Source: a virus
Length of the DNA: 64,000 nucleotides
IMG/VR virus record: IMGVR_UViG_3300036766_000032
Coordinates: 1 to 64,000 of that record
Strand: one strand, 5' to 3'
A program made the position numbers and the translations under genes. Positions within the stretch are counted from its first letter, which is position 1. Each line of letters starts with the position of its first letter. A model generated the notes under the pieces. That model was not told the origin of the DNA. It ran no database searches and saw only the letters and a program-made list of their open reading frames with translations. This document shows positions 15,340 to 17,454 of this stretch, in pieces.

Positions 15340-17454
15340 ATGACTAGAAGTAAAGAGAAGTTGACAGCGGTTGGTATAACATGCGGCGTCGGGTCCATGT
15401 TGATCGGAGCGAAGCAGGCTGGGTTCAAGGTGTTAGGTAATATCGAATGGCGGGGGTATTATTCTAGAGTCGATGAACAGGGTCGAAACACCTTCAGAGA
15501 ATACTTCAAAGCCCCTTTAGTCCGCCGGATCGAGGACTTAGCAGCGGACGAAGTCGAACGGATGACTGGAGCGACACTGGCTTTTTCGCATCCGGAATGC
15601 ATCGTGTCAGGAGACGTCCCGGTGTACACAGCGGACGGGTGGCGTCCGATTAAGGGAATCGAGGTCGGGGAACTCGTTATGACCCACAAGGGGAGATTCA
15701 GGCCTGTGGTTCGAGTGTTCCGGAACACGATGGTGAAAGGAGCGCCGAAGATTCGACTATACGCGTCCACCGAGAAGACCCATGGGAAGGCCCTGACTGT
15801 AACGGCCAATCACCCTATTCGGACATCTGATGGCCGATGGGTTCGAGCTGACGAAGTATCCGCTGGGGATTCGATCCGAGTCCTGGCAAGACGATGTGAA
15901 TCGTGCGGTTCGTGGATGCCCATGTGGGCCTCCGATGACGACTCGAAGCGTTGCTCCGTGTCGTGTTCGACGAAGGAAGTCTGGTCCTTGATGGAGAAAG
16001 TCGAGCGTGTCAACCAAACATCAGCGGCCCATGTAAAGACAAGAGCCCGAAGAAACTTCTTGAAGTCCGGACGTTCGAAGCTGGAAGAAACCCTCGAAGG
16101 AAGTCTCGTGGAAGTAGGGATCCCCCCCGAGTCTCAGTACCCGATCGGGGGATACTACGTTGACCTAGCGATCCCAGACAAGAAAATTGCTATCGAGTGT
16201 GACGGGGGAAACTTTCATAACATGGATGATCCGAGACGTCAGGAGGAAATCGAAGCCGCCGGGTGGACTGTACTACGTTTTGATGGATCGTCTATCGAGT
16301 CTGACCCAAGACGGTGCGCTGAGGTTGTCGAACGAGTCTTCCACAACTATTCAGGAAGCTATTCCTCGGTACCCGTGACAGTCACTCGGGTAGAGGTTCA
16401 AACGTCGGAACAGGACCGAACCGTCTACAATTTAGGCGTCGCGGAGGATAGCAGCTACATCGCGAAGGGATTCGTTATGAAAAACTGCGGTAATTTCTCA
16501 AATATGAGAGTCGACAAGACCGCGGCACTGACGGACCCTGGTGACATCCCCTTGGCGATGGACTTGGTCGGTAAGTTGAAACCCCGGTTCTTCGCCATGG
16601 ATGATCTTCCAAAGTCGTTCATGGCGTACACGATGGAAGAGTACGTCAACGCTCTTCCCGACTACGACTTATTTCCGGAATGGATTTCAAATTACAACTA
16701 CGGAAACATCCAGAAAAACCGGAAGAGATTCTTCATGATCGGTGCTCTGAAGAATGAGGGGTTCACTTTTCAGGCCGGGGAAGAACCAAACATCACGACG
16801 GTTCGGGACCTGATTGAAGACCTCGTCCGGTCGCATGGGAAGATTCCGAACACCGAGAAGCACGTGGAAGGGAATGAGAACTGCGGTAGAGCGAAGGATA
16901 TGTACGGGTATGGAAACCGATTCACATGGGCTGACCTCAAGAACTACTTCAAGAACAAACCATCCGGGGAAGTTATGACGTACGACTCAAGTTCCGGAGT
17001 TCGAAAGAGTCGCTTCGGATTTGGTAAGGGTCACTGGGATAGTTACGCCTACGTTCTAACGGGGGGGAGTCCGATCATTCACCCGATCCGGAATACCCCG
17101 ATGAACATTCGGGAACTTGCCCGGATTCAAGGAGCTCCAGACGACTTCGAGTTCTACGGAACCAAGGTGGACTCCAAGGGTAGGTGGAACATCGAGAAGA
17201 ATATACACATGGTCAAGCAGGTGGGGAAGTTCATGCCAGTTCAGTTCTGCAACTACGTTTCTAAACAAGTGTCGGCCCACGTTAACGAGAAAAAATTCAG
17301 GCCGTCGGGCCGTCGATTTCTTGCCCCAAACCAACACATCGACGACGCGAAGATGTGGTACTGCGAGAACGTTGGATACACAAACCAGAAAGGAGCTTGC
17401 ACAGCTTGTTGGGTGTATGACCCCTGCGACGCCAAACACAAGGTGAAAATATGA
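15340..17454 (+). CDS. divergent DNA cytosine-C5 methyltransferase homologue (possible carboxymethyltransferase), intein-containing
   Basis: motif I CGVGS, motif IV HPE/CGNFS after splicing, motif VI DDL (not ENV), VIII QKNRKRFF, IX RELARIQGAPDDF, X KQVGK. Confidence 0.8.
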   Translation: MTRSKEKLTAVGITCGVGSMLIGAKQAGFKVLGNIEWRGYYSRVDEQGRNTFREYFKAPLVRRIEDLAADEVERMTGATLAFSHPECIVSGDVPVYTADGWRPIKGIEVGELVMTHKGRFRPVVRVFRNTMVKGAPKIRLYASTEKTHGKALTVTANHPIRTSDGRWVRADEVSAGDSIRVLARRCESCGSWMPMWASDDDSKRCSVSCSTKEVWSLMEKVERVNQTSAAHVKTRARRNFLKSGRSKLEETLEGSLVEVGIPPESQYPIGGYYVDLAIPDKKIAIECDGGNFHNMDDPRRQEEIEAAGWTVLRFDGSSIESDPRRCAEVVERVFHNYSGSYSSVPVTVTRVEVQTSEQDRTVYNLGVAEDSSYIAKGFVMKNCGNFSNMRVDKTAALTDPGDIPLAMDLVGKLKPRFFAMDDLPKSFMAYTMEEYVNALPDYDLFPEWISNYNYGNIQKNRKRFFMIGALKNEGFTFQAGEEPNITTVRDLIEDLVRSHGKIPNTEKHVEGNENCGRAKDMYGYGNRFTWADLKNYFKNKPSGEVMTYDSSSGVRKSRFGFGKGHWDSYAYVLTGGSPIIHPIRNTPMNIRELARIQGAPDDFEFYGTKVDSKGRWNIEKNIHMVKQVGKFMPVQFCNYVSKQVSAHVNEKKFRPSGRRFLAPNQHIDDAKMWYCENVGYTNQKGACTACWVYDPCDAKHKVKI
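15598..16485 (+). mobile_element. intein (296 aa) with Zn ribbon and DUF559/Vsr-like endonuclease
   Basis: starts CIVSGDVPV, block B TANHP, ends VYNLGVAEDSSYIAKGFVMKN followed by Cys; internal VDLAIPDKKIAIECDG..FH and GWTVLRF. Confidence 0.9.

Follow-up and report, generated by a model that had tools for sequence, protein, structure and literature searches.

Natural carboxymethylation of DNA has been described in Synechococcus phage S-B43, whose CmoX is a DNA cytosine C5-carboxymethyltransferase (Yang et al., Nat Commun, December 2025, PMC12783734). A phage CmoA makes carboxy-S-adenosylmethionine (carboxy-SAM) in this system, and E. coli CmoA can supply it as well, as SpCmoX alone gives 5-carboxymethylcytosine (5cxmC) in E. 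coli (PMC12783734). Arg350 of SpCmoX contacts the carboxyl of carboxy-SAM in structure 8YF3 and the R350N variant is inactive, while CmoY, a ligase of the AsnB family, adds glycine to the carboxymethyl group (PMC12783734). The second-largest cluster of ligases found beside CmoX carries a glutaminase domain and was predicted to use ammonia, its function being left untested there (PMC12783734). Exchange of Asn for Lys at motif X also leads to carboxymethyl transfer in the engineered enzymes M.MpeI N374K and M.MedI N377K, where the Lys was proposed to form a salt bridge with the carboxylate of carboxy-SAM (PMC12015181). Here we describe a gene (15340-17454) that encodes a protein of the DNA cytosine-C5 methyltransferase (C5-MTase) fold with a natural Lys at this position of motif X. 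It lies in a 64,000-nucleotide stretch, hereafter the window, which represents bases 1-64000 of the complete 75,896-bp IMG/VR virus record IMGVR_UViG_3300036766_000032 with direct terminal repeats. As judged from sequence comparisons, the enzyme belongs to a separate, large clade of uncultured phages in which a motif-X Lys or Arg is universal, Glu takes the place of the Pro ahead of the catalytic Cys and Asp is the first residue of motif VI.

The gene begins with ATG 15340, its true start, behind a strong ribosome-binding site (AGGAGAGG), and ends at 17454. Residues are numbered here from 15292, where the open reading frame (ORF, 15292-17454) opens; numbering in the 704-aa product is lower by 16. 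Three segments follow one another on the plus strand. The N-extein (15340..15597), delimited upstream by the ribosome-binding site and ATG, carries motifs I and II and the first half of motif IV (SHPE). It is followed by an intein of 296 aa (15598..16485), delimited by Pfam matches, junction boundaries and contiguous intein-less homologues. The C-extein (16486..17454; PF00145, E 7e-12) holds the codon of Cys399 (16486-16488), the DDL of motif VI (16600-16608), QKNRKR, the target-recognition region and motifs IX and X. With a slash at the intein site, the motifs read GITCGVGSM (I), GNIEWR (II), SHPE/CGNFS (IV), FAMDDLPK (VI), GNIQKNRKR (VIII), RELARIQGAPDDF (IX) and VKQVGKFMPV (X). The codon of Lys646 in motif X, read directly, is AAG at 17227-17229, and Glu102 (15595-15597) stands where a Pro canonically precedes the catalytic Cys. 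The motif readings of the original prediction (TCGVGS, HPEC, DDL and KQVGKFMPV), its C5-MTase motif order and its start at 15340 were all found.

That prediction, which was made from the sequence alone, had placed the Lys at the position of Asn304 of M.HhaI and Asn374 of M.MpeI. In profile alignments, HPE-C falls on the PPC of HaeIII, 3g7u and SpCmoX (ghpEC against ggpPC; GHPE-C against GSPP-C) and MDDL falls on AENV. These alignments end short of motif X, the clade having a 12-residue insert after motif IX; thus, the motif IX-X segments were aligned separately to SpCmoX of phage S-B43 and to a canonical phage Dcm. Lys646 corresponds to Arg350 in the former (KQVGKFMPV against ERVGRMVPP; z 8.9 against shuffles) and to the Asn of the GN dipeptide in the latter (KQVGKFMPV against RLIGNAVPV; z 11.7 against shuffles). 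An AlphaFold model (pLDDT 85.7) superposes with its residues 21-667 on residues 16-372 of 8YF3 (Z 24.7) and on residues 10-326 of M.HhaI (Z 22.9). Judged by these ranges, Lys646 falls no more than one residue away from Arg350 and from Asn304. VIA-align gave Z 22-26 to 3g7u, 8yf3, HaeIII, HhaI and DNMT1 over model residues 19-668, as befits a C5-MTase fold. Alignment and superposition therefore both support the predicted placement, and the site is that of SpCmoX Arg350 as well.

The basic residue at motif X is not a chance occurrence, as Lys is invariant in 96/96 aligned homologues and, of the viral-locus homologues with coverage of this column, 56/56 have Lys or Arg. Also invariant in the 96-sequence alignment are Cys399, D437, L439, Q474, R477 and R479, and conservation is at least 90% at H100, P101, E102, D438, G32, N50, E52 and W53; motif I and II residues deviate in a few distant viral-locus members. 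In motif IV, the Cys is invariant and the preceding canonical Pro is replaced by Glu here (HPEC) and by Asp, Lys or Tyr in relatives. Motif VI has DDL in place of Glu-Asn-Val, with D-D/N-L throughout the viral-locus members except L059 (28% identity), and the Gly-Asn of motif X is GK. The change from ENV to DDL had been taken as a possible sign of an altered target base; taken alone, it is no pointer to a target other than cytosine, given that the acidic first residue is kept (Glu to Asp) and the pattern runs through the clade with that one exception. Uracil as the target is likewise unsupported, since motif VI retains its acidic first residue. Past motif X, a four-Cys tail (17362-17427; WYCENVGY...ACxxCW...C) has C706 invariant and C691, C703 and C712 conserved at 90% or more. 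This family-specific tail, which has no part in the superposition on known C5-MTases, probably serves as a metal-binding module.

A search with the C-extein returned more than 400 metagenomic proteins at ~45-57% identity, and no close Lys-type MTase was found by tblastn among 50,697 deposited phage records (best 22-31% identity). Three matches came from a species-genome scan. Two were on short or phage-like contigs in metagenome-assembled genomes (MAGs) and the third, a truncated copy, lay in an alphaproteobacterial MAG without CmoA, and matches of this kind permit no host inference. Two related phages carry tandem paralogs of the Lys-type enzyme (L021:8806-11468 and L025:4422-6829), which may differ in sequence specificity.

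The intein spans Cys103 to Asn398, starts with CIVSGD, contains TANH as block B and ends with VMKN, and its +1 residue is Cys399. It matches Hint/Intein_splicing and a DUF559/MTES_1575 (Vsr-like) endonuclease, the Hint-family matches each scoring below the Pfam cut-offs. Intein-less homologs read GHPECGNFS contiguously across the junction, which makes the +1 Cys of the intein the catalytic Cys of the methyltransferase. An N-terminal Cys, a C-terminal Asn, the +1 Cys, Hint matches and a conserved site in the host protein are thus all present. The penultimate residue is Lys instead of the usual His, and the endonuclease is of the DUF559/Vsr-like type, not LAGLIDADG or HNH. The same insertion site is occupied in five other sequences (P0007, P0023, P0044, P0047 and L145) and is empty in most homologs.

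The AsnB-like glutamine-dependent amidotransferase gene lies upstream on the plus strand at 13337..14722 and is a genuine member of its family, as had been proposed (Pfam Asn_synthase 1.4e-42, GATase_7 6e-13). Its product starts with MCGV, in which Cys2 is the glutaminase nucleophile, and has a PP-loop, SGGLDSS, in which S242, G244, D246 and S247 are invariant and G243 and L245 are conserved at 90% or above. GDGADELFGGY aligns with GEGSDEVFGGY of AsnB, so that both the PP-loop domain and the catalytic Glu of GxGxDE are present. The TTIR stretch of AsnB, which presumably binds aspartate, is reduced to LGS and a gap in the alignment with 1CT9, and the protein is ~90 aa shorter, with the C-terminal part of AsnB missing. 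Loss of TTIR and of the C-terminal part would argue against ordinary asparagine synthesis. The absence of the TTIR segment, together with retention of the gene in 45/56 loci, agrees with the earlier view that the protein is something other than an ordinary asparagine synthetase. The family profile matches E. coli AsnB (1CT9) at 4e-46 and SpCmoY at an hhalign E of 9e-7 with 17% identity; no specific relatedness to SpCmoY was found in this comparison, and the far stronger match to AsnB indicates a separate recruitment from the AsnB superfamily. By tblastn, cultured phages contain no close homolog (at most 29% identity).

In order to compare the genomic context, 56 related viral loci with 10-kb flanks were analyzed by tblastn and by clustering of all ORFs. 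A ThyA homolog occurs in 49/56 loci, a 50th copy being located just outside the locus window in G023, and the survey of homologs with a motif-X Lys or Arg bore out the AsnB-like gene as a conserved partner. A deoxycytidine monophosphate (dCMP) deaminase is found in 27-36 of the 56 loci, an N6/N4 methyltransferase in 20 (sometimes fused to the transferase), nucleoside triphosphate (NTP) pyrophosphatases of the dUTPase_2 type in 19 and of the PRA-PH type in 11-17, and a gene resembling uracil-DNA glycosylase (UDG) in 17. Homologs of SpCmoA or SpCmoY occur in 0/56 loci (tblastn, E below 1e-5). Gene order is rearranged in distant members, yet the transferase, the AsnB-like gene and the ThyA homolog remain together.

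We tentatively favor a carboxymethyl-type transfer from host carboxy-SAM followed by amidation to 5-carbamoylmethylcytosine, a reading to which we give somewhat less than an even chance. Protein splicing would yield a CmoX-like DNA cytosine-C5 alkyltransferase of the C5-MTase fold. Cys399 would add to C6 of a flipped-out cytosine, C5 would attack a sulfonium donor of the carboxy-SAM type held in the adenosyl pocket (motifs I and II), and Lys646, in place of the motif-X Asn, would hold the carboxyl of the transferred group. The AsnB-like enzyme, with its N-terminal nucleophile (Ntn) glutaminase and PP-loop adenylation domain, would then convert the carboxylate to a primary amide with glutamine-derived ammonia, leaving 5-carbamoylmethylcytosine as the final base at recognition sites. 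Alternatively, the AsnB-like enzyme may amidate the donor to carbamoylmethyl-SAM before transfer, or both enzymes may act jointly on the flipped base. The substrate would be cytosine or a pre-made 5-hydroxymethylcytosine (5hmC) whose hydroxymethyl group is displaced. The donor would have to be host carboxy-SAM because the phages of this clade lack CmoA, and such a supply is feasible, given that SpCmoX forms 5cxmC in E. coli from the carboxy-SAM of the host.

Covariation between the active site and the AsnB-like gene bears on the order of these steps. We aligned 58 enzymes of the module and built a tree. Immediately ahead of the catalytic Cys, 46/46 evaluable loci with the AsnB-like gene have Glu or Asp, and 4/4 evaluable loci lacking it have Lys or Tyr. 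The AsnB-lacking lineages are three, each nested in AsnB-positive relatives: L036/L039/L041/L047 (HPKC, with motif-X Arg), L048 (HPKC) and L046 (HTYC). We take the canonical position before the catalytic Cys (Pro80 of M.HhaI) to border the transferred group. The transferase active site thus seems to be tuned to whether amidation occurs, apparently through three independent events. It would fit this pattern if two cations hold a carboxylate where the AsnB-like gene is absent and a Glu/Lys pair holds an amide or a zwitterion where it is present. That an acidic residue tracks the AsnB-like gene suggests that the transferase already "sees" an amide, and these three events, if rightly read, hint that amidation precedes or accompanies transfer.

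A zwitterion in the pocket also brings up aminocarboxypropyl transfer of a diphthamide-like kind, which we consider highly improbable. Here, the 3-amino-3-carboxypropyl group of S-adenosylmethionine (SAM) would be moved to C5, Glu102 and Lys646 would grip the zwitterion and the AsnB-like enzyme would amidate it as Dph6 does diphthine. In AsnB-positive members, the transferred group would be surrounded by an acid-base pair (the Glu ahead of the Cys and the motif-X Lys), which would suit such chemistry, and no special donor synthase would be required, which fits the absence of CmoA. Aminocarboxypropyl transfer by class-I MTase-fold enzymes and product amidation by PP-loop enzymes are known in other systems. 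On the other hand, no C5-MTase-fold enzyme is known to transfer this group, AsnB-negative members with Lys and Arg or with two Lys do not fit a zwitterion, and the experiments that bear directly on a basic residue at this site point to the use of carboxy-SAM. A C5 that is already occupied, as discussed below, would be as much of a problem for it.

The ThyA homolog (18329..19111, plus strand) is divergent, with a catalytic IPC and a match to phrog_160 (2.8e-26). It reads RSCDFYRHFRDD, with Asp at the position of E. coli Asn177 and T4 gp42 Asp179, and the RSCD-x7-D pattern is present in 50/50 partners. Asn177Asp is a change that switches thymidylate synthase to dCMP (cited in PMC8670742), and the homolog is predicted from its sequence to make 5-methyl-dCMP or 5-hydroxymethyl-dCMP. 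Against the PDB, the family profile ranks 9IQU/9IQC (6.6e-19) and the CMP hydroxymethylase MilA (8e-18) ahead of thymidylate synthase (1e-13) and T4 deoxycytidylate hydroxymethylase (2e-12). The closest solved relatives, 9IQU, 9IQC and 9IR2, are recently deposited "thymidylate synthase" structures of 234-238 aa that likewise have Asp at the specificity position. A dCMP/dCTP-type deaminase gene (19108..19680, plus strand; PF00383 1.3e-14) lies in cis with the ThyA gene and its product has 52% identity to gp27 of Stenotrophomonas phage AXL3. An all-alpha NTP pyrophosphohydrolase gene of the dUTPase_2/MazG-like type (14655..15320, plus strand; PF08761 1.3e-8; phrog_12184, nucleotide pyrophosphohydrolase, 3e-20), which encodes a candidate dCTPase and has its probable start at ATG 14700, stands directly before the transferase. 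Phages in which 5-methylcytosine (5mC) or 5hmC replaces cytosine are recognized by a gene set of ThyA(Asp), PolA, an NTP pyrophosphatase and a dCMP deaminase in cis, and their deaminase makes dTTP from 5-methyl-dCTP (PMC8670742; 10.1101/2024.12.05.627091). By PolA (39%) and deaminase (52%), AXL3 and Pseudoxanthomonas phage PW916 come closest among cultured phages; the AXL3 cluster has the order methyltransferase, hydrolase, kinase, ThyA(Asp), deaminase.

Several observations weigh against carboxymethyl transfer. CmoA (TIGR00740) is absent not only from the window, as was noted at the outset, but also from the rest of the 75,896-bp genome and from a further 35 viral records that are related to it (0/14 among those of at least 90% completeness), in a search whose positive control, S-B43, scored 2.5e-34. 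By comparison, a survey for CmoX with the filter SPPC plus Arg350 gave 5,615 candidates with 4,257 CmoA sequences on their contigs (PMC12783734). A locus search with SpCmoA as the query gave only 80 loci, from close S-B43-like cyanophage. Of the hallmarks that define CmoX, SPPC and the active-site Glu at the ENV position are replaced (by HPEC and Asp), and the site of Arg350 holds Lys, a basic residue that works in engineered enzymes but differs from the Arg demanded by the survey filter. The clade profile scores 7.8e-4 against 8YF3 and ~1e-13 against 3g7u and HaeIII. M.MedI N377K retains full methylation with SAM (PMC12015181), and Lys alone is consequently no proof of carboxy-SAM use. A Glu beside the transferred group would repel a free carboxylate. 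The enzyme is nested throughout in phages that carry ThyA(Asp177), as a rule along with an NTP pyrophosphatase and a dCMP deaminase, which is the signature of cytosine replacement, and in phages that fill C5 before replication, a plain C5-carboxymethyltransferase would be left without a substrate. DNA of AXL3 resists 35/37 restriction enzymes, comprising all of those with G/C in their sites (PMC7504290). In partial relief of the occupied-C5 objection, no dNMP kinase (a deoxynucleoside monophosphate kinase) of the AXL3 type was found in this genome and only 5/56 loci have one, although the PF02223 probe has low sensitivity (0.003 for AXL3 gp29 itself); it thus cannot be taken for granted that the modified dCMP is incorporated.

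The original prediction, a carboxymethyltransferase coupled to an amidotransferase, thus holds in part. Its pathway mirrors CmoX/CmoY, the catalytic Cys and the adenosyl motifs are kept, and natural carboxymethylation with an AsnB-family ligase is sound chemistry. The idea is no longer new, and CmoA is missing in 36 genomes. The prediction had also left unweighed the context of ThyA with Asp (50/50), dCMP deaminase and NTP pyrophosphatase, which together form the cytosine-replacement signature.

This context gives rise to the main rival explanation, tailoring of 5hmC, which we regard as unlikely. ThyA(Asp) would make 5-hydroxymethyl-dCMP and 5hmC would replace cytosine in the DNA. The MTase-fold enzyme would flip out 5hmC, its Cys would add to C6, the hydroxyl would be expelled, a carboxylate-bearing nucleophile would add to the exocyclic methylene and the AsnB-like enzyme would amidate the product, giving a hypermodified cytosine without carboxy-SAM. 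The Lys-type MTase is strictly nested in ThyA(Asp) phages across rearranged gene orders, and the same logic of co-occurrence gave MetaGPA its 5hmC carbamoyltransferase. The absence of CmoA everywhere it was checked and the rank of MilA, a hydroxymethylase, over thymidylate synthase in the ThyA profile point the same way. The changes of the clade (Glu to Asp in motif VI, Pro to Glu or Lys before the Cys, Asn to Lys in motif X) flank the pocket of the C5 substituent; SpCmoX keeps AENV and SPPC, and carboxymethyl transfer hence needs neither the motif VI change nor that before the Cys. Liutkeviciute et al. reportedly found that C5-MTases substitute the hydroxyl of 5hmC in vitro with thiols. Tailoring of this kind is nevertheless without natural precedent. 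The strong conservation of adenosyl motifs I and II would be superfluous for a reaction independent of SAM, and no conserved candidate for supplying the nucleophile lies nearby. The scarcity of phage dNMP kinases (none in the genome, the AXL3 type in few loci) leaves incorporation of 5-hydroxymethyl-dC unproven, and the chemistry would be impossible if ThyA makes 5-methyl-dCMP as in Xp12-type phages.

A further rival is an ordinary methyltransferase that forms 5mC from SAM and merely has an unusual active site, with an AsnB-like enzyme that serves nucleotide or amino-acid metabolism independently and a Lys that is neutral or tunes specificity. We judge this to be quite unlikely. It is consistent with the fold and all catalytic motifs of C5-MTases, with the full SAM activity of M.MedI N377K and with the frequent placement of MTases beside nucleotide-metabolism genes in phage replication modules. 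SAM is also far more abundant in cells than carboxy-SAM. It does not readily account for three hallmark residues (the Pro of PC, the Glu of ENV and the Asn of GN) that are changed together and fixed over ~30-57% identity. Nor does it explain an AsnB linkage that outlasts changes in gene order and covaries with an active-site residue, or an AsnB-like protein without the TTIR segment and the C-terminal part of AsnB. A phage that already produces 5-substituted dCMP would moreover have no need of a 5mC enzyme.

More broadly, the clade may do something that CmoX does not, a possibility that we rate as real but doubtful. Either (a) ThyA-made 5hmC would be tailored in fully substituted DNA, or (b) carbamoylmethyl-SAM made by the AsnB-like enzyme would be transferred by the Glu/Lys site. 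Under (a), the hydroxymethyl group might be displaced as formaldehyde with gain of a carboxymethyl-type group, or a nucleophile might capture the exocyclic methylene. Whatever probability lies beyond 5-carbamoylmethylcytosine formation from host carboxy-SAM and its three rivals falls to other mechanisms.

The remaining genes of the block are also encoded on the plus strand. It is headed by a small HhH-GPD glycosylase-like gene (12464/12503-12898; Pfam), which as a stand-alone gene occurs in this phage alone among 57 loci and is not a conserved partner; a UDG-superfamily gene is present instead in 17 relatives (for instance L020:7672-8658). It is followed by a gene for a DUF1599 protein ("nucleotide modification associated domain 1"; 12888-13337; Pfam), found in 5 loci and likewise not a conserved partner. 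Downstream of the transferase, and overlapping its stop codon, lies the gene for an N6/N4 amino-methyltransferase with an NNPPY motif (17451..18332; PF01555 1.7e-13). PF00145 and PF01555 are fused in a single polypeptide in five homologs (P0025, P0052, P0061, P0065 and P0106), and these fusions suggest that the transferase and the amino-methyltransferase act on the same DNA sites. Far from this block, a 1007-aa polyvalent protein adjoins a Mu-like portal gene on the minus strand (62407-64000 of the window and on to genome base 65430; L062:408-3431). Its domains are an Acb1 phosphodiesterase directed against the cyclic oligonucleotide-based antiphage signaling system (anti-CBASS; 3.4e-25), a weak RyR match, a partial class-I Methyltransf_11 and a C-terminal kinase-like P-loop (GKPGSGKST), and it is probably an injected counter-defense protein. 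The Methyltransf_11 domain was considered as a substitute for CmoA and rejected, as TIGR00740 finds nothing there and the match is partial. One sediment metagenome run, probably the source, contains the stretch, and no RNA run was listed as containing it in the sequencing-run lookup.

The first demonstration of natural DNA carboxymethylation dates from late 2025 and is confined to CmoX of the Arg type, which travels with its own carboxy-SAM synthase. The window represents a second and apparently independent clade that has the Lys which engineers placed in the enzymes of methylome sequencing (DM-seq, CMD-seq). A literature search returned nothing on carbamoylmethylcytosine or on a module of AsnB, hydroxymethylase and MTase. 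If the clade uses carboxy-SAM, it would provide naturally evolved Lys-type enzymes and the first primary-amide cytosine in DNA, 5-carbamoylmethylcytosine. If it does not, the ThyA linkage and the AsnB covariation point to 5hmC chemistry or a new cofactor, and were (a) or (b) true, the outcome would be a new DNA base along with either a reaction new to the C5-MTase fold or a new sulfonium cofactor of natural origin. The absence of CmoA, the linkage to ThyA(Asp) and the covariation of the active site with the AsnB-like gene are new here and are unexplained by the published CmoX model.

Among described systems, CmoX/CmoA/CmoY of S-B43 shares with this locus a phage-encoded enzyme of C5-MTase fold with a basic motif-X residue (Lys646 here, Arg350 there), the catalytic Cys and QxRxR, alongside a gene for an ATP-dependent partner of the AsnB superfamily. 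The two differ in that the present clade has Lys, HPEC and DDL/DNL, whereas CmoX has Arg, SPPC and ENV, and a clade with HPEC and Lys was thereby left out by the filter of the CmoX survey. Their sequence relation is weak (profile E as given above; hhalign probability 94% over motifs I-IX). The clade looks no closer to CmoX than to ordinary MTases, and its basic motif-X residue looks like an independent acquisition. The lack of CmoA in 36 genomes, the linkage to ThyA(Asp), the intein and the Cys4 tail further set it apart, and the partner here has a glutaminase domain, unlike SpCmoY.

M.MpeI N374K and M.MedI N377K have the same Asn-to-Lys change at the same motif-X position. Both derive from CpG methyltransferases by one or two mutations, have PC and ENV unchanged and continue to use SAM, whereas the Lys of the clade is natural, fixed clade-wide and accompanied by the Pro-to-Glu and Glu-to-Asp changes. 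With the modules of Xp12/AXL3-type and T4-type phages, the locus shares an NTP pyrophosphatase, ThyA(Asp177) and a dCMP deaminase in cis, in a gene order similar to that of AXL3. The place that a dNMP ("thymidylate") kinase takes in AXL3 is filled here by the genes for the AsnB-like protein and the Lys-type MTase, and cultured 5mC phages are without homologs of either of these two. The MetaGPA 5hmC carbamoyltransferase (PMC8670742) offers a further parallel, as a tailoring enzyme likewise accompanies a cytosine-specific ThyA in uncultured phages, and a carbamoyl-type amide on the C5 side chain is predicted here. In the MetaGPA tables, as far as they were available to us, GATase_7 is not enriched and appears on 3 selected contigs (PMC8670742). 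The MetaGPA system employs a carbamoyltransferase with an O-carbamoyl product, whereas the enzymes of the present locus come from unrelated families, a C5-MTase fold and AsnB.

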